A stretch of 42,950 nt of DNA from a virus (Duplodnaviria > Heunggongvirae > Uroviricota > Caudoviricetes), in IMG/VR virus record IMGVR_UViG_2870479586_000005. One strand, written 5' to 3'. Below are positions 1,433-42,950 of the stretch, piece after piece. The notes under the pieces were generated by a model that was not told the origin of the DNA, searched no databases, and saw only the letters and a list, made by a program, of their open reading frames with translations. The translations under genes and the position numbers were made by a program. Each line of letters opens with the position of its first letter. Within the stretch, counting starts at the first letter, position 1.

Positions 1433-1861
1433 TTAATCTAGCGAAGCTCCATAATATTCGAGCGTGAGTGAAAAGTCCTGCGATTTAGGTGTTCCGCCCA
1501 TCAAAAAGCTGTTTTGCGTTTCAGTTAGTTCTCGCAGCACCCAGTACCCTTTCACCTCCCCGGTCCCCAGCACTAGCTGCTGGGGTTCTCCCGTGTTCCC
1601 GAGCGCTCGCAAATCTGTCAACAGGCCGACGCCGCACCCGTCAAGAAATAAAGCGTTTATCTTTCCATCGATAGTAATTGTGGGGTTCGGTCGTCCGGTT
1701 ATCTGCAACGCGTCGTTTTTCCCGAATCGTGTTTGCTGAGCCCAGCGCCAGGCGTCACTACGTTGCAGTTTGTTGTACGCTACTGTTGATATAGCAAAAA
1801 TGAAATCACCCAGGCCGAGCATGATATCCTCAGCACCGTTTATTGCATCACTCATTGTCAC
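1433..1861 (-). CDS. phage tail protein U (gpU-like)
   Basis: 142-aa ORF; LQRSDAWRWA...FLDG...DFSLTL pattern recalls P2 gpU; immediately downstream of the tape measure. Confidence 0.75.
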   Translation of the reverse strand: MTMSDAINGAEDIMLGLGDFIFAISTVAYNKLQRSDAWRWAQQTRFGKNDALQITGRPNPTITIDGKINALFLDGCGVGLLTDLRALGNTGEPQQLVLGTGEVKGYWVLRELTETQNSFLMGGTPKSQDFSLTLEYYGASLD

Positions 1862-3496
1862 CCCGCCGCCGCTGGTTTATCAAACATCGCGCCACGATTG
1901 TACGAACTCGCAGCCTGTCTCAGTCCATCGAGCACCCCCGACGCTGCAGATTGTTGTATTGACTGCGGATCTGTCGCACCGACAATATTGATTTCGATTT
2001 TATTGTTTTGCTCCGGCGCAGGTGTCGAGACTGCCTGCTTCAACGTATCAATATTTAACGTCGACGAATCCAGTGCTGCAGGCGCGGTATTTTTATTTAC
2101 CATCCCGGATAATGGATTAACAAACGCGAGCATTGATTCTGCCTGAGATTTTGCCTGTTCTTGCCGTTCTGGATGCCGCATATTTTCGACAGCCTCTTCG
2201 GCTTTTGCCTTCGCAATATTATCAGCAGTCAATCCAGCGTTCGGTGAATATTTACCTCCCGAATCCATAAACTCTTGATATGCCCGATTATATTCGTCAT
2301 TATAAGTTTTCTGTTCTTCATCTGATTTTTCATCCGGAATAAGCCACTCCAGTTTCTTTACGACAGCCCATATAATCTTCCCGAATTTGACGCAACCTTC
2401 TCCAAAATTGACGATGCCATCCCACATTTTTTTCATATTTTCTGGTTTTACCCACTCAGTAATTGTGCTGACAAAACCACCCTGATTATCCTTAAACCAG
2501 GATGTAAATGTTTCACGTACTGAGTCAAACGTCGGCGCGAGTTCCCCCCGATTTTACCGAGTGTATCTGCAAGTCCCGACGTAATAGAGCCCCACAGATT
2601 TGTCACTGATACATGCGCACGCGCCGCCCCTTCCGCACCCTCTTTTGTTAACAAATTCGACTTTTGCGCGTCAGACATTGTCTGTTCCCAGCTTTTACCC
2701 GTCGCCTTCATATACGTCATGATCTTATTAGCCTCGCCCCCATGAGCTGGTCAGCGAGGCTCGCCGCTTGCTTCTCATCTTTCATTTCAGAGATGCGACG
2801 CATAACCTCATTAAACTGTTTTTCCCGATCCCAGCCAGCCATTCGTTTTTTCGTCAGGCCAATTTGAAATAACATGGGATTCAGGCTTTTTTCGTTTCCG
2901 ATTTCGCCGATTTTATTTGTAAGTTCTTCAGACAAATCCCCGATATTTTCGCCGTTCAGGCCCGCGGCTTTACCAATATTTTCCCACGCAGCGTATTTTT
3001 CGACGCCAACGCCGTAGGACTTCGCCAGACCGAGTTTTTCTGACGTCTCTGCATTCATTGCCAGCGAACCAGCTGCAGCACCGCCAATGAGCCCTGCCGC
3101 GCCAAGTGTCCCCCATTTGATACCCCGCCCCGTAGCCCTCACCGCACCTGCGGCGGCTCGTCCGCCCCATTTTGCAGCTCCTTTTGCGCGACCCGTCCAC
3201 TTCTCCAGCCGCTGTTTTTTAGCAAGTTGAGTATTCAGCGCCTCCTGGTCCTGCGTTGTCGCTTTTATCCGACGGTCCAGCTTTTGATACTGAGCAGATA
3301 AATCAGAAACGTCTTTACCTGCCAGTTTCATTGCTGCGATTTTGTCTTTTAATTTATCCTGACTTTTCGTTAATTTCCCGACAGTAGACGACGTCTGCCG
3401 AATCGCATCATTGAGTTCTGTTGTACCGCGACGAAACGACGGGTCTATTCGCCCACCGAATACAACCTGCGTTTTAAAGTTTTGAGAAATAGCCAT
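1858..3496 (-). CDS. tail tape measure protein (gpT-like), interrupted by two apparent 1-nt frameshifts
   Basis: Three consecutive minus-strand ORFs (2717-3496, 2448-2720, 1858-2436) with coiled-coil, Gly/Ala-rich tape-measure character; frames rejoin if one base is added in the C5 run at 2737-2741 and in the C6 run at 2544-2549. Confidence 0.7.
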
Positions 3497-3604
3497 CGAT
3501 TTTCATGACCTCGTTTACATAGAAATTAAAAACCCGGTACGGCAGGTCCATTTGCGTATCGGGCGGGATGGCAAGTTTTTTCGCAATAAACGGAATCAGA
3601 ATAA

Positions 3605-3886
3605 CTATATCTGATGTCGGTCTTTCGGGGGCTTTACCAGTTCGTTAAACGCGGCCTCCATTTGATCGTAATCGCACGCAGGCAGTGCATATAAATCCTC
3701 ACGCTCCAGATTTGCCAGGCGCGCCAGCATTGTCGCTGTCCGCTCTTCAAGACCACTTTTATCGTTACTGAACATAATGCGGTCGCGTAATTTTGGTTCG
3801 CGAATAGTAATTGTATCGCGGCTCTCACCCTTAATAATAAACGGGCGAGAGAGCGTAATAGTCATACTGTCTAATAATGATTCCAT
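3605..3886 (-). CDS. tail assembly chaperone (gpE-like)
   Basis: 93-aa ORF between tube and tape measure genes, the conserved chaperone position; no in-frame slippery heptamer found for an E-prime product. Confidence 0.45.
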   Translation of the reverse strand: MESLLDSMTITLSRPFIIKGESRDTITIREPKLRDRIMFSNDKSGLEERTATMLARLANLEREDLYALPACDYDQMEAAFNELVKPPKDRHQI

Positions 3887-3898
3887 TTTATTTGCCTT

Positions 3899-4411
3899 TT
3901 AATATACATGGAGAATACGAGCAACGCCCGCAAGAACGTCAACACCATTAATTACTCGTTTCATTTTTGCAGGATGAATCTCGTAAATAACTTTTCCATT
4001 TTGAACTCGTTTATAATAGCTCGGCGCAATCGTTACTGATTGCCCAACTGCTGATTTTGAATCAGTCCCCTGCGCGTCATCAGTAATCGCCGTAATAAGC
4101 CCCTCATATGTATCAATACGTTCAAAATTGACACCGTAATTGTCAGTATATGCACTTCGAATTTCGAACCTTGTTTTAGCACCTGGTATTAATCCAAAAT
4201 ACCCCATCACACCAGAATCGGAGCCAGAGACTTTAAAACTGGCTGACATTTTCTCCATCCCCCCATCCAGAGTGATAGCTGTATCCATCGCGCCTGTTTT
4301 AAACTCGTCTTCGATTATTTTCATATCGACTGGAGTATATTCAGTACAATTTAAAACCCGTTCGCCCTGCACGAATAGCGCAAACGCGCGGTAAGCGTTG
4401 CTGTCTGACAT
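3899..4411 (-). CDS. contractile tail tube protein (P2 FII-like)
   Basis: 170-aa ORF directly downstream of the sheath gene; C-terminal INGVDVLAG recalls P2 FII. Confidence 0.7.
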   Translation of the reverse strand: MSDSNAYRAFALFVQGERVLNCTEYTPVDMKIIEDEFKTGAMDTAITLDGGMEKMSASFKVSGSDSGVMGYFGLIPGAKTRFEIRSAYTDNYGVNFERIDTYEGLITAITDDAQGTDSKSAVGQSVTIAPSYYKRVQNGKVIYEIHPAKMKRVINGVDVLAGVARILHVY

Positions 4412-4428: not shown

Positions 4429-5930
4429 TCAGGCTGCTTCTTTAAAAAGGGAGGCCAGTGCTTCAACTGTATAGTCATTATTAATGCGGTACATTAACGT
4501 AATTGTTTGTGCCGGAGATTTCGGACCAAAATCAACATTAATATAAAGATTACCCGCAGCCAGGCTTTCTTTTGTATTCAGCTCACTGTCTAACCACGCA
4601 CGCCCTCCGTTAATCGCACCCTGCTCCTCTAATTTGTGCAGATATGCGTTTATCGACTCGACAACGTCTGTTCCGAGGTGCAGGTCTATCGGACGATCAA
4701 TAAAATCGGTCATCATTGCCCGGGCTATAGAATCCTCAATTACGTCAGCTGTTCGACGAACGCTCTCGAAAGACCATTGCGGGCTGAGGCTGCACAAATA
4801 GTTACCCCAGTGTCTGAACCCGTCATAGCGAATAATCGTGCTGACCTGGCTGGCATTCAGCAGGTTCGCTGTGCAGTTTGTCTCACCAATAATAAAATCG
4901 TCGACTTGTTCAAGCCCTGTAACTCCGTAGATATTCTGGTTCGATTTACTCCACCAGAATCCTTTTTCATTATCAATTCGGGCTCGTAAACCAGCAGCGA
5001 TAGCTGAATACGGACGAGATAACCCACTGACATCACTCGTAGAATAAACGCGAGGTCGCAACAACTCAGCGCGTCCGCCGAGTTTTTGCCTGCGATTCAC
5101 AACGTCTGCAGGGGTAGCAGCGCGCGGAGAGTCGATATAACACACTCCCCGGAGTTTATTTGCAACCACTTCAAGCTGAGCCGCTATTTCGTCTCGTGCG
5201 CTGTAATCCGGCGCTATAATAATTCGCGGGGTAACTTCGTTAATTTGCGCTGACGTCAAAAGCGAATTAATTCCGGCGATAACATTTTCGCTCATATCAG
5301 CGTCGTCGCTACTCTCTACAACGCGAACAACAACGATTAATGCATCAGTCTGATTTAAAATATCAGAAATAGCGGGGGGCAGAGTCCCGTATTTCCCGAG
5401 CAGGGCGGCTTTCTTCTGACTACCTGCAATTAATACAGGAGAATTAATCGGGAATGCGTCATCCGTTCCACCTGATAAATTTGTAGGTGGAAGACCAAAT
5501 ACTGTACCGGTTCCGGAATGCTCGCCACCAAAAGTTACATTAATCCACTCTCCGTCTGTTTTCCCCTCTCTATATTCCTGATTCTGATCATACATTTTGC
5601 CGGGGTCATTCCCGGCTCCGTAATCATCGTTAATTTTTTTGTTCCGTCGGGCAGCGTGCTATATCCTGGAGTGCAGGTTGCGCCCTCAACTGTCATATCT
5701 ACAATTTCAACAACCCATTTATTCCCGTCGCTGCCCGGTGATACAGTTGAAAACTCAACGAGATTATCAGCCAGCGATGAGCCCCACGTTAATGATGCTC
5801 TCGTAGCCTCCGCGACGTTCGTCGCAGTACCAACAATCCCAATCACGGAAATATCTACTGTGTTGATCTCTTTTGTGCCGTCGTCGTATTCGAGCGTGCG
5901 AATACCGTGCAAAAAATTAGTTACGCTCAT
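4429..5930 (-). CDS. contractile tail sheath protein (P2 FI-like), split across two frames at a T7/A7 run
   Basis: ORF 5535-5930 begins with a sheath-like N-terminus (MSVTNFLHGIRTLEYDDGTKEINTVDISVIGIVGTA); ORF 4429-5595 carries the rest (FPINSPVLIAG...IIRYDGFRHWGN...LYINVDF); frames join with one extra base in the run at 5634-5640. Confidence 0.75.
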
Positions 5931-6316
5931 TTTATTCCTTCTCTATTTTCACCAATTCGCGTCGCTATTGCTTCTTTAAGCTCGGCCAAGTTTTCGATTT
6001 GCGCGTCAGATGCGGTTCCGGCATCTACTGCACACTGAATTGAGAATGCCTCAATTGACAGATCGCCAACAGTCCGTAATGTAGTCTGGAGTTTTTGCGT
6101 CTGCTCTTTTTTTACAAATTTAGAAATGCTCCCATAATCCCCGCTCAGCGCTCTTTCATATAAAACCCTACCGTGTTCCTCGCAATCATTTTTCATTGCG
6201 GTGAATGGAATGTCGTTTCCAATCCCGTCAATATCGCAAATAATATTTATAGATAACCCATGCTCGTCATTAAAAACAGGGTTTGTTATTTTTCTAAATG
6301 AATCAACACTTATCAT
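5927..6316 (-). CDS. tail fiber assembly chaperone (gpG/Tfa-like)
   Basis: 129-aa ORF immediately downstream of the tail fiber gene with 1-nt overlap. Confidence 0.5.
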   Translation of the reverse strand: MISVDSFRKITNPVFNDEHGLSINIICDIDGIGNDIPFTAMKNDCEEHGRVLYERALSGDYGSISKFVKKEQTQKLQTTLRTVGDLSIEAFSIQCAVDAGTASDAQIENLAELKEAIATRIGENREGIK

Positions 6317-7500
6317 TACGCAATCCTAATAGCTAAAAAACAGGCAGTCCCAATATCACCGACTCCACCTGGTGAATACGCCATAGCTCGCCATGAGCCA
6401 ACAAGTGGTGTGTCATAAAATGGTTTTGTGGCAATATCCGTGTTATATGAACCGGTATTATTTATACTAGCGTAATATAAATCACCTCCAGCCCATATGG
6501 AGCCCGGGAGTATTTGGGGTGCATGATTAATAGCGACAAGCGCATAAGTATTAACCGCGCCAACAACACCTATTTCCGGTGATGGGTCCGGTGAAAGACT
6601 TATATCTATGTTGCCATTTTCATCCGGCGACTCCCCGTTAATCGTTTTAACCGGTTTAAGATTAGCCTCATTCCAGTATTTATACGTCCGTCCGCCACAC
6701 AGTAATACCAGGCCATCATAGTGAACTCCGCGTAATCTATAAAAAACCTTCTGATTGTTTTCTCCACGGGTCGAAAAATCTAAATAATCGCCCGACACAT
6801 CTGATAAACCAGCAAGTGAAAACAACGTCAAATCAGTGCCCGGTTTGTTTATATTTATTTGTTTTTTAGAGGATAAAACGTCTTCAAAAATCACATCATC
6901 TTTAAAAGTATTTGGATGAGTAAATGCATTACCCTTATCTCTATATGCAACGTCCCCATCTATACCAATATTTTTCCGCGCAGCCTGCTGAGCAGTATCA
7001 CCATTTGCGGAAATTTCAGATAAGTTTTTACTTATCTGCAAATATTTTTTGTCAGCTTCCTCGGGAGTTACGTAGTTGTCATATACTACAACATTAACCG
7101 TAGATGTGCTGGACACCGCGAGGGTGTATTTATACGTGATTGAAATCAGCGCGCCGTTGCTGTCCGTGGGTTTTAAAATATCCGGCGAACGCGCTACAGA
7201 GTACAGTTCACCTTTATCTGTCAGTATTCCCACTTCGCGGATAGTATAGCCGCCGGTTTCCGGTGGTACGTATAGCGTAAAAATAACCTGATTACCGCTA
7301 TTTTCTGACGATTTAATATCACCGCGATACGTCTCGTGAATTAATGCTGTTCGTGCAGGGTCTGGTGTTACATCGTCGTTTCCGTTCGCGTCACCGATAA
7401 CAAATTTGTTCAGCACCACTGGAACGCCTGACGCCAGGGCGGCGGCCTCGAGTTGTGCGCCACGGTCTGTCAGTACTGCGTAAATTTTATTTTCAGCCAT
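6316..7500 (-). CDS. tail fiber protein (gpH-like N-terminal domain)
   Basis: 394-aa ORF; N-terminus (RTALIHETYRGD...YTIREVGILTDKGELYSVA) recalls the conserved N-terminal domain of P2 H; follows baseplate gene I. Confidence 0.7.
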   Translation of the reverse strand: MAENKIYAVLTDRGAQLEAAALASGVPVVLNKFVIGDANGNDDVTPDPARTALIHETYRGDIKSSENSGNQVIFTLYVPPETGGYTIREVGILTDKGELYSVARSPDILKPTDSNGALISITYKYTLAVSSTSTVNVVVYDNYVTPEEADKKYLQISKNLSEISANGDTAQQAARKNIGIDGDVAYRDKGNAFTHPNTFKDDVIFEDVLSSKKQININKPGTDLTLFSLAGLSDVSGDYLDFSTRGENNQKVFYRLRGVHYDGLVLLCGGRTYKYWNEANLKPVKTINGESPDENGNIDISLSPDPSPEIGVVGAVNTYALVAINHAPQILPGSIWAGGDLYYASINNTGSYNTDIATKPFYDTPLVGSWRAMAYSPGGVGDIGTACFLAIRIA

Positions 7501-9042: not shown

Positions 9043-9428
9043 AATATCAGTTCCATATTATTAAACTCTAATCGCTGTTGTGTTTCGATATCTGTTGCGA
9101 TAATTAATATTGTTATTTTCCCGATGTCCACTGCTAACACATTTATTCTGTCAATTCTGACGCGTGGTTCCCAGCGTGCTATTGCTCCTGCACTTTCCAT
9201 TATTATTCTCATAGCAAGCGACGGATCAGTGGGATTATCAACGAGGTCAAATAATTTGCTGCCGTATTCCGGCAACATTACACGGGTTCCCAGCGGGGTC
9301 GTTAAAATATCAACGATAGACTGACAAATGTGATCAGTCCCCGATAAAGGCTTACCGGTGTTACGGTCCATTCCAAGCATATTTACGCCATTGGTTGGTT
9401 CGGTTGTTGTGTTTCCCCGTTCGGACAT
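9039..9428 (-). CDS. baseplate wedge protein W (GPW/gp25-like)
   Basis: 129-aa ORF; LGMDRNTGKPLSG...SIVDILTTPLGTRVMLPEYGS...WEPRV recalls P2 gpW. Confidence 0.8.
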   Translation of the reverse strand: MSERGNTTTEPTNGVNMLGMDRNTGKPLSGTDHICQSIVDILTTPLGTRVMLPEYGSKLFDLVDNPTDPSLAMRIIMESAGAIARWEPRVRIDRINVLAVDIGKITILIIATDIETQQRLEFNNMELIF

Positions 9429-10299
9429 ATATGAGTGTGTCCGTTGTACGTTGTGCGGACCTCAGTCATTGTGCCTTGTCGGTCCTGCACCTCTTGCCCT
9501 GCTAACACACTACCGCGAGTTGTGATATTACCTGTTCCACCGTTATCTCCAGTGACAGAAATATCGTTACGGAATGTCGCTAATTTATCTACTACTAATG
9601 TCTCGGTAATATGCGTTGGACCAGCTAGTGTTATACCACCCGGAGCCCACGCGCTGATTGTTTGAGCTGTCAGCGATATTCTGTTCGCAGCAGTAACACT
9701 AACAGAACTCGTTGCTATAACGTTCACTAAATCAGCATGTGCGTTAATTGTATCTGTCGCTGTGACATTAATAATATCAGCGTCTGCGTTAATTAATTTC
9801 CCACCATGGATATTAACTACATTTTCGCTATTAATAGTAACATCTGCGCGTCCAAATATTTCTATTTCAGACTCACCGAGTATTTTTACCACGCCGTCCG
9901 GTACGCCCTGCCATGTCAGAGTGTGATTTTTTGTGTTATACGTCATCGTAGCCCCGTCACAGTATGCAGTGACATGATCATGGGGTCATTGCTTGGCGGA
10001 GCTTTGTCGTCAATGTGCAGCCCGAGCATAACTACACCGTTCCGCGTATCCCCACCCTCAGAAACAACAGTAACGGGATCGCCCACTGATGGTGCGCTCC
10101 AGTCGACGCGTTCTGAGGTGGCGTGAGTAAACCACTGCAGCCAGCCTGACTGGTGTTCGCCACCAAATGAGACTCGGCAGCGTGGAGGATTCATTTTAAC
10201 TGCAGCTATCGTGCCGCGTTTAACTGCGTCACGCAGCCTGCGCGCGTTCTCCGCTGCAGCATATTCATCGTCCGATTGGGCCATAATAGTCGCCCTCAT
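9383..10299 (-). CDS. baseplate hub/spike protein V (gpV-like), encoded as two ORFs
   Basis: ORF 9943-10299 resembles the gpV N-terminal region (CRVSFGG...WLQWFTHA...WSAPSVG); ORF 9383-9946 resembles the C-terminal spike (beta-helical repeats, HTH metal-site motif); junction is an ATGA overlap beside a G4 run at 9982-9985. Confidence 0.65.
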
Positions 10300-10801
10300 G
10301 TTCTGCGCCGATATCTGGTGCTATTCCGACGTATATATTTTTCAGGGTCCCCTGTGAGGGATAATCGAAAATATCTGGACCAACGCCTACAACCTGCGTG
10401 AACGACACGCACTGAACTGAATGCGAACCGACTGACTGCCCGTTTTTAATCCAGTCGCACGGTTCCGCGTCGCTGAATTTTGCCGGTTTAGTTCCGGGAC
10501 CGAACATTCGCCCATTGATCCAGCTCGTCATATAGAGCGCTGCATTCTGCGATTTCAGTCCGTACTGATCAGCTGCAAATTCACGCAGCAAATACAAATT
10601 ACACGACAGCTCGACTGACTGAATTGAGCCTGGAACCGATTCGTCACTCTGTGACCAGTTGCTGATTTCCAGGAACAGAGCTGGCGTTTCAAATCCAGCC
10701 GGAATTTCCGGATAAATTCCGAATGTTTTGATGAACGGTATTTGTAAAACCGCGCCTTTAACGCGATCAAGATATTCGTCAAATGCATCCAGTCCGCTCA
10801 T
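10265..10801 (-). CDS. hypothetical virion protein (possible tail completion protein)
   Basis: 178-aa ORF between head and baseplate genes; assignment by position only. Confidence 0.3.
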   Translation of the reverse strand: MSGLDAFDEYLDRVKGAVLQIPFIKTFGIYPEIPAGFETPALFLEISNWSQSDESVPGSIQSVELSCNLYLLREFAADQYGLKSQNAALYMTSWINGRMFGPGTKPAKFSDAEPCDWIKNGQSVGSHSVQCVSFTQVVGVGPDIFDYPSQGTLKNIYVGIAPDIGAEHEGDYYGPIGR

Positions 10802-11100
10802 AATCGTTTACCTGTTTTTGGGTCTACGTGGACATTACCTTTCACGCGACCGCGCAAATCTTTCTCAAAAAAGCCCATAAAAACAGGGCCAATGTTTTCA
10901 AAAATATAATCATCGATAGCATCCTCCAGCGCGTCGTGCACAGGTACGCGAGCCTCTTCGATTCCTCCGCGATCCAGTCGAATCCAGACACTTTTCGCAC
11001 CGTAGCGTTTCGCTACGAATGAATCGGGCCAACTCATCATCGCCAGCCCTGCACTTTTGGGTGTAAAAGTTGCCCCTCTAGCGCCTTTTTTGGTTTTCAA
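10798..11100 (-). CDS. hypothetical virion protein (TTG start; may be 3' part of a frameshifted gene with 11214-11477)
   Basis: 100-aa ORF; its reading frame stays open upstream to about 11245 and can be joined to the 87-aa ORF by a 1-nt change near 11230-11240. Confidence 0.3.
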   Translation of the reverse strand: MKTKKGARGATFTPKSAGLAMMSWPDSFVAKRYGAKSVWIRLDRGGIEEARVPVHDALEDAIDDYIFENIGPVFMGFFEKDLRGRVKGNVHVDPKTGKRL

Positions 11101-11213
11101 AAACAGGCCGGTCTCAGGATCGCGAGGCTGTTTTTGCCTCCGTGGATTTTGTAATCGCCCCTTTAGCTCAGATACCCGGAAATCATTCAGACCGTACCAG
11201 AGCTTGGCGCTGC

Positions 11214-11477
11214 TCAGGTCTCCTGCCCTTCTTTTGTAAAATTACGGCGCTTAATGAACGGCTTGATTCGTTTATCTACGGCCTTATGATTTTTAGCTGC
11301 CAGTGCAGTCAAAATCATTCCTGCTGAAATTCGGTGCATATGTTTTGCAGTTCGGTTCAGCGCCCTGTTGTATACCATTAACATTTGATGTTGCGTCGCG
11401 CTGATTTCGACTCTGAGCTGCTCCAGCGCCGAAACATCGATATCGAACATCTGCGCGTTACTACGTAAATCGGCCAC
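11214..11477 (-). CDS. hypothetical virion protein
   Basis: 87-aa ORF downstream of the FII-like gene. Confidence 0.3.
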   Translation of the reverse strand: MADLRSNAQMFDIDVSALEQLRVEISATQHQMLMVYNRALNRTAKHMHRISAGMILTALAAKNHKAVDKRIKPFIKRRNFTKEGQET

Positions 11478-21255: not shown

Positions 21256-21496
21256 CCCGCCGAGCCAGCAGCAACGCCAGCGGTTAGAGGTTCAGACATG
21301 ATTTTTCCTGATTCAGAAACGACAAAACCCGCCGTGGCGAGGTTCTTAGAGATTTGGCAACATACCAAATTAGCGTTAAATATGGCCTATTTTGTTCGGT
21401 TTTGCAAGCATTATACGCAAACGTCGTCTAAATGGTTCTGATAATGATGCAAAGTTGCAAGAAGTGCCACTTCATCAAGTGCTCTCACCGCCTCTT

Positions 21497-22081
21497 TCAT
21501 TCCTGCCCAGTGCGGGAGTATGTTTCGCACCAGGTGGAACGAGAAACAGACAACATTCCAGCTAGCGCAGATCCGGCCATCTCCTTAAAATCCTCGCGTT
21601 TATTTGCTGCTGCGACCGCCTGCACGGACAACCACACCAACGAAAGCAGGCGCTTGACTACTTTTCTCTGAGTTGACGCAGAGATGTTTCCTTTATAGCG
21701 ACTCCAGACAGCCTCACAAATAGCTGTTTGGTGTTTGAACGCCAGGTTACCACCGTAGCAATAGCGCAACCACGCCTGCTGGCTAACGTCGAGCGCGTTC
21801 ACAGCGCGGCGCCACGATGAATCAGCGAATTCAAAATCATTCATCGGCGGCGCGGGGCGACGTCTGCTGAAACTTTCCAGGGCATAAACTGGCGTAACCA
21901 GAGCATCAACGGTCCGGTCCTCCAGTTGCACACGATGAATATGTTTGCGTGGGTATGCGTTTTTATCTGCTGGCGGGTGCTCACACAATGCTTCCAGTTG
22001 CCCCTTAGAACCACCAGACAAATCCCGCAATGCAGCGCGCAGTTTTATGCGGGTATATTCCAATAAATACTCGTTACTCAT
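21497..22081 (-). CDS. putative late-gene regulator (antiterminator Q-like by position)
   Basis: 194-aa ORF immediately upstream of the lysis genes and downstream of nin-like genes; no sequence motif recognised. Confidence 0.4.
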   Translation of the reverse strand: MSNEYLLEYTRIKLRAALRDLSGGSKGQLEALCEHPPADKNAYPRKHIHRVQLEDRTVDALVTPVYALESFSRRRPAPPMNDFEFADSSWRRAVNALDVSQQAWLRYCYGGNLAFKHQTAICEAVWSRYKGNISASTQRKVVKRLLSLVWLSVQAVAAANKREDFKEMAGSALAGMLSVSRSTWCETYSRTGQE

Positions 22082-22374
22082 CAGATAAACTCCTCATCGC
22101 GCCAGATAGCCAGTGTTCTGAAAACTCCCTCAGCGTGCATCAACAGCAATGAGTCGTGCTCGTAATCCGTTTTTGTACGTCCGTCGATAGCATCGTGACA
22201 CGCACTACAGGCGATAGCGCCCTGCATATCGTGAGGTTTGATGGCTGTGCCGCACGTTCCGGCGAGACGATAATGAGCCAGTACGCTGGTTTCAGGATTG
22301 TGATTGCACACACCGGGGATACGCACAGTACAAGCGCGACCACGTGCAGCTTTTCTCAGGTCGATTTTTTTCAT
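22081..22374 (-). CDS. YbcO-like protein (DUF1364)
   Basis: 97-aa ORF; KAARGR.C.VRIPGVCN.NPETSVLAH.RL.G.CGT..KP.D...AIACSACHD.ID.RT motif recalls DLP12 YbcO. Confidence 0.7.
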   Translation of the reverse strand: MKKIDLRKAARGRACTVRIPGVCNHNPETSVLAHYRLAGTCGTAIKPHDMQGAIACSACHDAIDGRTKTDYEHDSLLLMHAEGVFRTLAIWRDEEFI

Positions 22375-22967
22375 GATGTGTAATCCAGCAGCTGCGCGGC
22401 GGCATTTTCAGCGGCCTCCTGAGAGGCAAACGTGCGGAACAAAATATAATTCCACAGCACATCTAAAACGGCTGAATACAGTTGACCGAACTCAAGATCG
22501 TCCATCGCAGCAAACGAGATTGAACGAGGTACGCGCATCAAACTGCCGTCTGGCATCTGATGAACGTCATAAAACCCAGCTTCCATAATCGCCCATGCGC
22601 GAAACGCCTCGAACGACTTCACCGCACTGATATTCCCCGCGCGCTTTTCCGACTCATCGAGAAGATACTGATCAGCCAGCTCTGCCATGACATCACCGTG
22701 TCCACCGTAATACGCCAGTAACTTAACGTAGCCATGGACCAGTTCGCGCTCCGCAGGAGAAATAGCCCCTCCGGACGGATGCCAGTAATCAAAGCCCAGG
22801 TTTAGAAGTGAGAAAAATTTACGATGAAACGCGGGATTACGCGCCTGTTTGAAATCTGCATACACAACAGCACCTGGTTTGACTCGTTCAGTCAACCAGC
22901 GTTGCGTGTCTGGTGTCGCGGGTATTAGCGAACCGCCGGATACCCTGATAAATGAATGCTGCGCCAT
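22371..22967 (-). CDS. DUF1367-family phage protein
   Basis: 198-aa ORF, coupled (4-nt overlap) to the YbcO-like gene; family assignment from recall. Confidence 0.5.
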   Translation of the reverse strand: MAQHSFIRVSGGSLIPATPDTQRWLTERVKPGAVVYADFKQARNPAFHRKFFSLLNLGFDYWHPSGGAISPAERELVHGYVKLLAYYGGHGDVMAELADQYLLDESEKRAGNISAVKSFEAFRAWAIMEAGFYDVHQMPDGSLMRVPRSISFAAMDDLEFGQLYSAVLDVLWNYILFRTFASQEAAENAAAQLLDYTS

Positions 22968-26085: not shown

Positions 26086-26509
26086 CTCTCTCGGTCCAAC
26101 AGTCTTTCGAAAGCCCTGATCAAAGGGCCTTGATAAATTAGCAGTGCGTTGAAAACAGATAGTTATTCCCATCAGTTCCAACGTAATACACATCAAAAAA
26201 ATCACCATTCTTTTGCTCTACGTCAACACCTACCCTTAAAAAAATAATTCTCCAAGAATGAGAAAGTTATTGTGTGTATTAGATAAGATATGAGCTGACA
26301 CATCTATGGCGTGGAGCCAAACCTAATATGACAGTCCGCTCTGTGCCAAGAGCGAACATTACAAACACACTAAAATTTATGTTTGTACTTCGCTGTAGCC
26401 ACCTAAAAGTATTATTGCGGGTGGTTTCGTGACAATGTTAGATATTCTTCATTTTGAATTGATTACTGAATTAAGATAAAACCACCCGAATTAAAACTAT
26501 CAAAAGTAT

Positions 26510-27391
26510 CTATGGTTGTTCATCACTCTCTTCTGAAAGTATTTGTACTACTTGTCCACACTCTCCACATACTACGTGTAATTGACTATCTTCTTCGGAC
26601 TTGAAAATCTCACTAACTAAGCTATGACAGTTAGGGCATTTTATCTCGTTATCAAAACCTATGAATTTAAGGAATAAGTTTTGAATTAATGAAACTGCAG
26701 TGCAAGTGAGTATAAGGCAAATTTTAGCGTCAGGAATGTTTTTGTTTGAAGAGTGCACCGTCTCTGCGGAAAAATCCCATGCAGACTCAATCGTTGAGCG
26801 GCAATATTTTCTGAGACTTGAGTTTCGTTTTCCTGCGGCATACAACCCAATAATAATTCGGCAAATATTTTTAAAGTCAGCTGCTTTAATATTTTCTTTT
26901 TTTAATATATCCTCATGAGTTTTATAAAGGTGAGCAGCAAGCTCAACCATGCTCTCTCTACAAGTTAGTCCAATACTTTGAATATCTTCAGGGGCCTTAA
27001 TATTATTCAGAGCAACAGCAGAAGCATTTAACCTCCGGCTAATAGAACGAAGCATATCTATATCTAAAGGTAACTCATCAATAACATGTTTGAAATCATT
27101 GCTATGTCTTGCTTGTAGTCTTTGAGTTATACCCAAATGAAAAGAATATGCTTCATCAGCAGAAAAGAAAAACTCATTTTGAGTGTATAAGTTTAAAGGA
27201 ACGTTTTCACCTTCAGCAACCCACCAGTTACCATCATTTTTTGTTCTGACGTTCCAAATGTTAACCTCAAAACCTAAATCATTAAATGTTTGCTCAACTT
27301 GCATGTTTTTTATGTTTTCTATATTTTGAGTTTTTAAATATTCAGTAATTCTTTTCTCAGCATCGATTCTGTATTCTGGTGTCATGTGCAA
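26510..27391 (-). CDS. hypothetical protein with C-terminal zinc ribbon
   Basis: 293-aa ORF in AT-rich DNA; C-terminal CPNC...CGEC four-Cys motif. Confidence 0.55.
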   Translation of the reverse strand: MHMTPEYRIDAEKRITEYLKTQNIENIKNMQVEQTFNDLGFEVNIWNVRTKNDGNWWVAEGENVPLNLYTQNEFFFSADEAYSFHLGITQRLQARHSNDFKHVIDELPLDIDMLRSISRRLNASAVALNNIKAPEDIQSIGLTCRESMVELAAHLYKTHEDILKKENIKAADFKNICRIIIGLYAAGKRNSSLRKYCRSTIESAWDFSAETVHSSNKNIPDAKICLILTCTAVSLIQNLFLKFIGFDNEIKCPNCHSLVSEIFKSEEDSQLHVVCGECGQVVQILSEESDEQP

Positions 27392-27449
27392 TCCCTTTTA
27401 ATAAGATACTAAAAGTAAAAGCGCATTATAGCATAACACATACAATGCG

Positions 27450-27695
27450 TTAATGCGTATGCTTGTGCCCTGTAATGATTTCAAAATGAACGTTTGCATA
27501 CAACTGTTTTTTGATCTGGTTGTATTGCAACAGAATGATTTCCACTGCTCGTTCATAGCTGATCTTCAGTTTAGTTAGCATGTCCGTTCTGTGCCTTTTA
27601 AGTTCATTCTTGCCATACTTAGCCGACTTGAATGCTATTTCTTCTATCACTTTTTTAGTTGGCATATTGGGGCTAGAGTTCCGTTCCTCGCTCAC
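27450..27695 (-). CDS. small hypothetical protein
   Basis: 81-aa ORF (GTG start in track) just upstream of the 293-aa gene; start uncertain. Confidence 0.3.
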   Translation of the reverse strand: MSEERNSSPNMPTKKVIEEIAFKSAKYGKNELKRHRTDMLTKLKISYERAVEIILLQYNQIKKQLYANVHFEIITGHKHTH

Positions 27696-27862
27696 GGCAG
27701 ACCTTAAGCTCAGTTAGTTCGTCTGCTCCGTGCCAGAGCGAACGTTGTAAACACAACATTGCTTTAGTCGACAGGGGCCAATAGGCTACTGCGTACCCTG
27801 TGCTAGAGTAAGTATCAAATAGGTATTATCCATGTATATGACTGCTCGATGATGCATCATAA

Positions 27863-28942
27863 TCACAAACGTTCATGATCAAGACTGTTTTCATCATTAT
27901 TTAAGTCATTAAGCATTTGAAGTGCGTCACGAGTACGTTCATAATTACTTTCAGGGTATAATCTAAACTTCATATTTTCCAAATTAATTAATTTTCTTTT
28001 TAATTTGAAGGAATCGTTAGAAAGTGACATTTCGTAAAAATCAATATCCCCCTGTCTGGATTGTAATGCACTCATAACGGAAAACTTAGCAGATTCTTTG
28101 AACCTCAAACCGAATGTAACATCGCTTAACCGAAATGGTGAGTTCTGTAAACCTTGATTATTAATAACTCGATATTCATTTTCATATTTCCAAGAAGGAG
28201 CTTTGCTGAGAAGAATGACCCTATCAATCTCTTTTTTGGCAGTATTCTTTATATTATCATTGCTGCCAAATAACATATCATGAACTTGTTGAGTTCTAAT
28301 AAATCGATTCCCTTTGTAATCAACTGGATGGATATCTAAAGAGTCATTTTCAGAAGTATCATATCCAATACAAAATCCCTTATGTTGATCAGCATAATGC
28401 GACCACATTAAGGGGCAGTTAAATTTTCTTGCTAATGAAAGAACACCAACCTCATAATTTTTTAGCAAGTATCTTTTAATATAAAAACTGGCGCTAGCAT
28501 AAAAATCATCACCATAATTATCAACATCCCACGAAATATTATCAATTAATTTTCGAGCTTCGCTTTCACCTAGCATTTCAATTTTCTCTAATGTCCTTAG
28601 ACCTTTATATTTAATTTTTTTTGCTGCTTTCGCTAGTTCCTTTTGATGATTTTCTTTTACTAATTTATGAAGGATAGAGTTCAATTCATTGACATTATTG
28701 ATGTCGTTTAACACGGAAGGATTACAATCCAAAGGGTCATTGAATGTTGTTGGATCAGCAAAATACAGTCTATCGCTTACAAGCAAGTCAAGACTATCAA
28801 CACTAAAGCTTTTATATTTATATAATCGAGAGGGAATATTCTGTATCATCACTTTTATCTCATAAATTTTTTTGATATTATCTGCCAATTCTAGCCCCAT
28901 GGGCAATAGCAAAATCGAAAAATACTCTCTACGTAAGGGCAA
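27863..28942 (-). CDS. DUF2971-like protein (candidate defence-associated)
   Basis: 359-aa ORF in AT-rich DNA; RLYKYKSF...LYFADPTTFNDPLDC...PLMWSHYADQHKGFCIGYD...KYENEYRV motifs recalled as DUF2971 hallmarks; start may be at an internal Met. Confidence 0.5.
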   Translation of the reverse strand: MPLRREYFSILLLPMGLELADNIKKIYEIKVMIQNIPSRLYKYKSFSVDSLDLLVSDRLYFADPTTFNDPLDCNPSVLNDINNVNELNSILHKLVKENHQKELAKAAKKIKYKGLRTLEKIEMLGESEARKLIDNISWDVDNYGDDFYASASFYIKRYLLKNYEVGVLSLARKFNCPLMWSHYADQHKGFCIGYDTSENDSLDIHPVDYKGNRFIRTQQVHDMLFGSNDNIKNTAKKEIDRVILLSKAPSWKYENEYRVINNQGLQNSPFRLSDVTFGLRFKESAKFSVMSALQSRQGDIDFYEMSLSNDSFKLKRKLINLENMKFRLYPESNYERTRDALQMLNDLNNDENSLDHERL

Positions 28943-29514
28943 GCCCTTTCCCCATGGATATTCATCAAATTAAGCGGGTGTACTTAGGTCATATTGACCT
29001 GTTCCTAATTGACGATACACCTCGATGTTCATTAAGCCACTTAGAGTGCTGAGACAGATATGAACTGCAGCTTTTCGCTCACTGCTGCCCTTCAGTAAGC
29101 GAAAAAATGCCTACTCGGTGCCATATACAGTCATGGTTATTAACTACAGGGAATAATTCCACACTGAAATTAAATGTCTGCCTTTTACAGTAGAAATAGT
29201 TTCTCCAGGACACTATCCATTGCCGGGCACAATCACTCGGGGTATAACGATATAAAATATGTTCATGATAGTGCAGGTTCGTATATTAAGTTCAGCAGCG
29301 AAAACATGCCTTACAGGTTTCCGGTTTTGGGAGCGTCGTTACAGGATCCTGCGCATACCGTTCCCATCTGTTGAATTAAAGGTTTCACAGCCTTTGCCGA
29401 TATCGCCTTTTACCTTGCCTGTGATGCGTTCAGTGCTCAGCGTTGTTTACTGTAGCTCTCGGAACTGATTACAGACCGCGTCTTAAAAACCAATCCTTAC
29501 TCTAAAGGGAATTC

Positions 29515-41701: not shown

Positions 41702-41965
41702 ATGAGAAGCGATCACGACATAATCACCAGAGAAGAAATGGTCGAGCTGACGGGAAGCCCACTTAAATCAAAGCAATGTGAGGCTCTTCGCCGGGCTGGA
41801 ATTTTCTTCATGGAAAGGGCTGACGGGCACCCAAAAACAACCTGGGGCCATTTCATGAACCCAATAAAATTTCGCAATTTACAGGAGGTGACGACGCGAA
41901 AAGATGATGAACCTGATTTTGGAGCAATATTTAATGGCCGGAAAGAGAAAGAACCCAGCAGATAA
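41702..41965 (+). CDS. DUF4224-like small protein (possible excision/directionality factor)
   Basis: 87-aa ORF immediately upstream of the integrase; ATG follows the repeated initiation module. Confidence 0.45.
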   Translation: MRSDHDIITREEMVELTGSPLKSKQCEALRRAGIFFMERADGHPKTTWGHFMNPIKFRNLQEVTTRKDDEPDFGAIFNGRKEKEPSR

Positions 41966-42950
41966 CTGGATGCCGCCTCGTGTTTACCAGGGCAAAGCGG
42001 CCTACGAATTCAGGAATAAAGATAACAAAGCGATACGCCTGTGCGCATTGGATGCGCCACGATCAGCCGTATGGCTGGCATATGAAAAAGCGGTCGGTGA
42101 CGAAAAAGAAAGAAATACTTTTCAGGCGCTCGCGGAACAATTCATGACCTCCCCTGATTTTATGGATTTGGCAGTCGAAACCAGGAAAGACTACACAAAA
42201 TATTCCGGAAAAGTTCTGCCTGTCTTCGGGAAGATCGACCCGGATAAAATCAAACCTGAACATATTCGGCGCTATATGGATCAACGCGGTTTATCAAGCC
42301 GAACTCAGGCAAACAGGGAAAAAAGCTTTATGTCCCGGGTATTCCGTTGGGGTTATGAGCGAGGTTATGTCCAGAGGAATCCTTGCCAGGGAGTTAAGCA
42401 GTTTAAAGAGACAGCACGCGAACGTTATATTACGGATGAAGAATATCAGGCCGTTTATGAAGTGTCTCCTGACGTCGTTCGCGTGGCAATGGAGATTGCC
42501 TACTTATGCGTGGCCAGACAGAGTGATGTACTTTCATTGCAGAAAGACCAGCTGTTCAATTCCGGGATCTACATTCGTCAGGGAAAAACCGGCGTTAAGC
42601 AAATCAAAGCCTGGTCGCCTCGTCTGCAGAAAGCGATAGCTCTGGCTCGTTCTCTGCCATTAAAAACGGGAATCAGTAGCCTGTTTGTGATTCATCAAAC
42701 TACCGGTGGCAAGTACACCCGTGATGGTTTTAACTCTCGTTGGCGTGATGTCAAAGCGGCAGCACAGGAAAAATATCCTCATCTGCAAATAGACTTCACA
42801 TTTCATGATCTGAAAGCAAAAGGTATCTCTGATCTGGAAGGCAGCCTGGAAGAGAAGCAAGCAATTTCCGGGCATAAGAACCCACGACAGACAGCTGCCT
42901 ATGACCGAAAAGTTAAAGTAGTGCCCGTAGTTGGTGGCCAGAGAAAATGA
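41904..42950 (+). CDS. tyrosine integrase (site-specific recombinase)
   Basis: 348-aa ORF ending at the window edge; C-terminal catalytic region FHDLKAKG...GHKNPRQTAAYDRK with His and Tyr; true start probably at 41934 or 41970. Confidence 0.85.
   Translation: MMNLILEQYLMAGKRKNPADNWMPPRVYQGKAAYEFRNKDNKAIRLCALDAPRSAVWLAYEKAVGDEKERNTFQALAEQFMTSPDFMDLAVETRKDYTKYSGKVLPVFGKIDPDKIKPEHIRRYMDQRGLSSRTQANREKSFMSRVFRWGYERGYVQRNPCQGVKQFKETARERYITDEEYQAVYEVSPDVVRVAMEIAYLCVARQSDVLSLQKDQLFNSGIYIRQGKTGVKQIKAWSPRLQKAIALARSLPLKTGISSLFVIHQTTGGKYTRDGFNSRWRDVKAAAQEKYPHLQIDFTFHDLKAKGISDLEGSLEEKQAISGHKNPRQTAAYDRKVKVVPVVGGQRK

Follow-up and report, generated by a model that had tools for sequence, protein, structure and literature searches.

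The window, i.e. the whole 42,950-nucleotide stretch of DNA analysed here (IMG/VR record IMGVR_UViG_2870479586_000005), represents a single prophage of about 43 kb with an integrase (41934-42947), lambda-type head genes and P2-type tail genes. In E. coli relatives the prophage site lies between tRNA-Leu/pgsA and yecA. The P2 FI-like tail sheath gene (4429..5930, minus strand) is identified by a 1503-nt CDS in relatives, Pfam domains, a pyocin sheath match and Foldseek. As the initial annotation had stated, it is split into two frames one base apart. ORF1 (5535..5930, minus strand, 131 aa) starts with an ATG at 5930 and is homologous to the N-terminus of P2 FI; ORF2 (4429..5595, minus strand, 388 aa) starts with an ATG at 5595 and contains the conserved sheath core together with the remainder of an extra domain. 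The two ORFs overlap, ORF2 being in the -1 frame relative to ORF1. The ORF2 frame is open from 5658, so both frames are co-open over 5538-5658 and a single-base correction anywhere in this interval would join them. Directly downstream of the sheath gene follows the tail tube gene (3899-4411, minus strand; PF04985, 8e-23), and then the tail assembly chaperone (3605-3886, minus strand; PF10109, Phage_TAC_7).

Pfam domain calls were judged against the gathering scores. The restored sheath protein, i.e. the product after insertion of one base, contains Phage_sheath_1 (PF04984, residues 228-377, 43.8 bits against a cut-off of 31.4) and Phage_sheath_1C (PF17482, residues 383-480, 52.8 bits against a cut-off of 26.9). 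Phage_sheath_1 is likewise recovered from ORF2 alone (44.2 bits), and ORF1 alone has no Pfam match. The sheath-like nature ascribed to the N-terminal ORF is confirmed by a MAFFT alignment of residues 1-41 with P2 FI 1-39, in which eight residues (H8, G9, E14, T19, G31, V33, T35 and A36) are invariant. The R2 pyocin sheath PA0622 is matched with E = 7e-47 (query 143-492, chain 25-383). With the AF2 model as Foldseek query, pyocin R2 sheath chains rank first (3j9r/3j9q/6u5b, E = 2e-15 to 3e-16, 32% identity), followed by the sheaths of PVC, T4, diffocin and phiCD508; the C-terminal third of this model is poor (pLDDT <50 at 316-333, 344-413 and 484-500), and so are its TM-scores. The protein passes all sheath-family tests run (Pfam, N-terminal arm, fold and the adjoining tube gene) and is a contractile-tail sheath protein, in agreement with the initial annotation.

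Among 5,426 complete E. coli genomes, 453 contain relatives of the sheath stretch, as do four records named "Escherichia phage vB_EcoM-...R". The gene is a single 1503-nt CDS of 500 aa in all annotated relatives examined, namely EC28, SK1144, phage 569R10, 22KM0354 and SA186. Two RefSeq groups represent the same gene: WP_021560839.1 / WP_097478780.1 from E. coli prophages, and WP_000117510.1 / URC09434.1 (Escherichia phage vB_EcoM-569R10), about 85% identical to the restored protein. Both share the order hyp129, sheath, tube, tail assembly chaperone, tape measure, gpU, gpX and gpD, and both have one 1503-nt sheath ORF, from which the window differs by a missing C at codons 109/110. The succession of sheath, tube, chaperone and tape measure is also common to the window and phage P2. 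P2 gpFI (Peduovirus P2, YP_010663829.1) aligns in its N-terminal arm and core with 37% identity (MAFFT), and by tblastn with 35% over residues 158-495 of the restored protein. The best solved relative is the R-type pyocin sheath PA0622 (PDB 3J9Q/3J9R), the top Foldseek match, which belongs to a tailocin rather than a phage.

The extra domain (5461..5807, minus strand) corresponds to residues 42-157 of the restored protein and is found neither in P2 FI nor in the pyocin sheath. In the MAFFT alignment with P2 gpFI it comprises 116 residues between the N-terminal strand and the core, flanked by P2 FI homology in residues 1-41 and 158-500, and this agrees with the insertion of about 110 aa noted initially. 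P2 FI, with 396 aa, has no counterpart of this segment and carries its own 15-residue insert elsewhere. The frame break falls within the extra domain. ORF1 is genuine sheath from residue 1 to about 109, where it has passed the N-terminal arm and two thirds of the extra domain; its tail of about 21 residues (AKCMIRIRNIERGKQTESGLM) results from reading on out of frame. M1 of ORF2 is M113 of the intact sheath protein.

This insertion is not peculiar to the phage. The homologue search yields 613 sequences, and among the 120 listed nearly all are 490-520 aa long; they come from Escherichia, Salmonella, Enterobacter, Cronobacter, Pantoea, Klebsiella and others. No other part of the family varies as much as this segment: the enclosing stretch of residues 26-165 measures between 133 and 176 aa and retains few conserved positions. 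A Foldseek search with the extra domain gives no match. Judged from these alignments, the predicted domain is a variable outer domain common to a large Enterobacteriaceae family with sheaths of about 490-520 aa, and not a new one. It is probably a surface-exposed accessory domain of the larger sheaths, missing from those of P2 and the pyocin. Outer or additional sheath domains for comparison are provided by phiCD508 gp55, DSY3957 (3HXL), Halogeometricum borinquense (9EZM), T4 gp18 and phiKZ gp29. The family is large and already sequenced, so the domain adds nothing new on contractile tails.

The initial annotation had placed the split at the T7/A7 run (5634..5640), which reads A_AAA_AAA on the coding strand in the frame of ORF1. 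Gapped alignments place it elsewhere, in a run of four G on the plus strand (5602..5605), i.e. four C on the coding strand, at codons T109/P110. Here the window has C4 and close relatives have C5 (ACC CCC GGC or ACC CCC AGC); the aligned stretch is GAATGACCCCGGC in the window, GAATGACCCCCGGC in 22KM0354 and GAATGACCCCCAGC in EC28. With one base inserted after 5605, the gene encodes 500 aa, as the length of about 500 aa given initially implied, and differs in one residue from the protein of 22KM0354 (WP_021560839.1). It matches cluster P0001 (71 members) at 100% (rounded). These alignments show that the missing base lies in the C-run at 5602-5605. The supposed one-base offset between the frames is real, and the base that joins them belongs in the C-run rather than in A7.

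The A-run itself is seven long and in frame in the intact relatives EC28 and 22KM0354, and also in two metagenome contigs, which rules it out as the lesion. A length of seven is therefore normal at this position, and the N-terminal ORF has the sheath homology described above. Joining the frames at A7 introduces 11 wrong residues, INDDYGAGNDP, where relatives have LTMITEPGMTP. In a group of relatives with 82.5% identity the position reads GAGAAAA and no run is present.

The same heptamer raises the question of programmed recoding, in which a -1 frameshift or transcriptional slippage at A_AAA_AAA (5640-5634) would yield the 500-aa sheath and possibly also a 131-aa product. A7 is a perfect X_XXY_YYZ motif in the frame of ORF1, lies within the overlap, and a -1 shift there enters the frame of ORF2; a GCCGGG/CCCGGC hairpin lies 17 nt downstream. 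The arrangement resembles the -1 frameshifts of the lambda G/GT and P2 E/E' chaperone genes, which share overlapping ORFs in the tail cluster and a slippery-looking heptamer in the overlap, but it would concern the wrong gene and is conserved in no relative. Every relative instead has an uninterrupted single ORF with the same A7 in frame, the 82.5% group has not kept the heptamer, and the 11 residues of the recoded product are absent from four relatives aligned across the stretch. A like frame break, moreover, is seen in eight or more further genes of the window, none of which has a slippery site there. The hairpin downstream of A7 contains the C-run. The downstream fold has an MFE of -16.8 kcal/mol; its z-score is -1.8, and shuffled sequences equal it in 14 of 200 cases. 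Programmed frameshifting or transcriptional slippage is consequently rejected as highly improbable, the arrangement not being conserved and the downstream fold not being significantly better than shuffles.

The contraction of the sheath C-run is one of many in the window. Compared with its closest relative, 22KM0354 (identity about 99%, with 377 substitutions over 39.9 kb), the window has lost a single base at 12 sites. Each of these is a homopolymer, and 11 are G/C runs; they lie at plus-strand positions 1380, 2544, 2737, 5602, 9982, 11226, 21255, 21328, 21514, 32461, 38805 and 41457. This corresponds to about one homopolymer deletion per 3.6 kb, in a window of which G/C runs of three or more bases make up only 5.6%. 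Only two base gains are found against 22KM0354, both in 3-base runs. The more distant relatives SA186 and GF131 have the longer length at all 12 sites, and so have the metagenome contigs at every site that they cover (four in L009, one in L010).

The loss rate, in the comparison with 22KM0354, climbs smoothly with run length. Among G/C runs, contractions affect 4 of the 112 compared with a length of 4 (3.6%), 3 of 20 with a length of 5 (15%), 2 of 6 with a length of 6 (33%) and both runs with a length of 7 (100%). Among A/T runs, one of the two with a length of 8 is contracted and none of the 1358 with lengths of 3-7. The contracted C-run of the sheath gene forms the 3' arm of a perfect 6-bp GC hairpin (GCCGGG AATGAC CCCGGC; 5590-5612, minus strand), and this hairpin might contribute to miscalling or slippage.

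At least nine genes are broken by these losses. The halves of the broken genes are 91-100% identical to the relative in tblastn comparisons, mostly 100%, and no further breaks were seen there in the genes hit. Two losses divide the tape measure gene (about 1861-3496) into three pieces, and one-base losses break gpV (9386-10284) and a 226-aa baseplate gene (10801-11477). The other broken genes are holin, Q and three hypothetical genes of 103, 738 and 60 aa. The antiterminator Q of 22KM0354 (21969-22640 of its contig, L004) already has an internal stop and is annotated there as a pseudogene; its equivalent in the window (about 21414-22081) has an extra one-base loss at 21514.

The split was initially taken as a feature of the sheath gene. 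This does not hold, as G/C-run losses of the same type affect no fewer than eight further genes of the window, which indicates a sequence error rather than biology. The split is very probably a homopolymer-length assembly error in an ordinary prophage sheath gene. The assembly would have dropped one C of the C5 run (5602-5605, coding strand), throwing the frame at codon 109/110, and the product in the organism is most likely a normal sheath of 500 aa, without any involvement of recoding. We infer a sequencing or consensus error rather than a mutation from the window-wide pattern of like defects and from the absence of the short allele in high-quality relatives, both of which are shown by the sequence comparisons.

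Two points count against an error: the strong G/C over A/T bias is not expected of every long-read platform, and real replication slippage also favours G/C homopolymers, especially in lineages deficient in mismatch repair. Parts of the long-read literature describe errors of the kind proposed here: homopolymer-length errors as the commonest residual error of long-read-only bacterial assemblies (passages of PMC8812927), gene-breaking, pseudogenising frameshifts introduced by long-read errors (passages of PMC12007338) and recurrent, 'systematic' nanopore errors (passages of PMC8011154). Errors of long-read-only assemblies and the losses in the window have in common that they are one-base losses, confined to homopolymers, rising with run length, gene-fragmenting and recurrent between data sets; the window differs in a G/C bias stronger than is assumed for all platforms.

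Since slippage mutations favour homopolymers, the same losses could also be read as real mutations, with C5 changed to C4 in a decaying prophage or a mutator lineage, a sheath pseudogene and a tail-defective prophage as the outcome. Decay does occur in this prophage family, as the pseudogenised Q of a relative demonstrates. It would, however, have produced 12 frameshifts in 43 kb without other degenerative change, the flanking protein halves being mostly 100% identical; in the tblastn comparisons of the sheath and the other broken genes, only single-base frame changes are seen, with halves 91-100% identical. All 12 changes are contractions, set against only the two gains in 3-base runs. Runs of four are also reduced to three, at a rate only about 30-fold below that of 7-base runs, and the run-length dependence seen in the window is flatter than that of biological slippage. 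A real mutation is thus considered unlikely, and if the deletion were real, it would merely add one more tail-defective prophage.

The occurrence of the short allele in other sequences bears on the choice between mutation and assembly error. Complete genomes were surveyed with an 81-nt query centred on the C-run. This sheath variant occurs in 14 complete RefSeq E. coli genomes; the matched stretch spans 82 nt in all of them, with at most 98.8% identity, so C4 is present in 0 of 14. A pattern search for either allele recovers two metagenome contigs, both with C5 and A7, and gives no match among GTDB species representatives. The short allele is accordingly found in none of the complete genomes and neither of the metagenome contigs, a distribution that argues against a real mutation. 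Exact-product look-ups of ORF2 and of the 259-aa tape-measure fragment return no match.

The exact 131-aa product of ORF1 is found on one Logan contig only, L007 (ERR15665874), the sole further source of the C4 allele, which derives from a strain different from that of the window, 70 substitutions apart; these substitutions are mostly clustered in 7100-7483 (tail fibre). L007 shares the short alleles of the window at 5602 (C4) and at 2544 (the C6 allele of the tape measure). Their presence in an independent strain favours a real mutation, and the recurrence of C4 in an independent read set speaks against an error. L007 carries the long alleles at 2737 and 1380, so that two of the window's four tail-region losses are common to both. 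Within 7 kb it additionally lacks single bases in at least three homopolymers where the window does not (an A-run, a T-run and a C-run), and its tail-fibre and sheath genes are thereby fragmented further. The contraction sets are therefore different and only partly overlapping, which counts against a real mutation. Such partial overlap, read from the contigs, is as would be expected from recurrent basecalling or consensus error and would be awkward for inheritance. If ERR15665874 consists of accurate short-read data, the C4 allele is real.

A further reading combines both runs. C4 would be real in at least two strains, those of the window and of ERR15665874, and low levels of full-length sheath would arise by ribosomal or transcriptional -1 slippage on A_AAA_AAA, 29 nt upstream. 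The 11 residues thereby replaced would lie in the variable domain, which is probably surface-exposed and where the replacement could be tolerated, and the result would be an accidental, not an evolved, rescue of a structural phage gene. We give this combination only a very slim chance. With assembly error as the preferred explanation, the gene beneath the artefact is, by its restored translation, evidently a sheath already catalogued, one residue off a RefSeq entry, and the split itself is most appropriately classed as no real feature. Its main relevance is one of quality control: other "split genes", "frameshifts" and "pseudogenes" of the window are equally suspect, and the breaks in tape measure, gpV, holin and Q remain so pending a read check.

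Two genes downstream of the sheath gene, at about 3497-3886, a chaperone frameshift that resembles the conserved, programmed E/E' type is likely to be genuine. The -1 frame of the chaperone is open from about 3625, crosses the 108-nt gap and enters the beginning of the tape measure (ERPTSDIVILIPFIAKKLAIPPDTQMDLPYRVFNFYVNEVMKIDGYFSKL*; window 3470-3886, minus strand). A canonical slippery heptamer is not seen (AAG CCC CCG AAA), and the extension has no Pfam match.

On the other side of the sheath gene, between it and the tail fibre, lies a conserved hypothetical ORF of 129 aa (5927-6316, minus strand) without Pfam match. Its positions 6107-6113 form a T7 run (plus strand) in the window, ungapped against 22KM0354, and T6 in the metagenome contigs L009 and L010; the hypothetical gene would thus be frameshifted in those contigs. 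The adjacent tail-fibre gene (6316-7500, minus strand) is mosaic, with alignments to close relatives breaking or changing identity at about 7484 (boundary 7484-7494), and encodes 394 aa in the window compared with 403 aa in EC28 and 22KM0354.

A variable cargo slot is located at 26100-29100. It is absent from the closest relative, which has a GIY-YIG nuclease and other genes there. One ORF of the slot (26510-27391, minus strand, 293 aa) has a weak C-terminal zinc-ribbon match, and another (27863-28942, minus strand, 359 aa) contains DUF2971 (Pfam, 9e-11) and matches the PADLOC candidate defence system PDC-S31 (1e-50).
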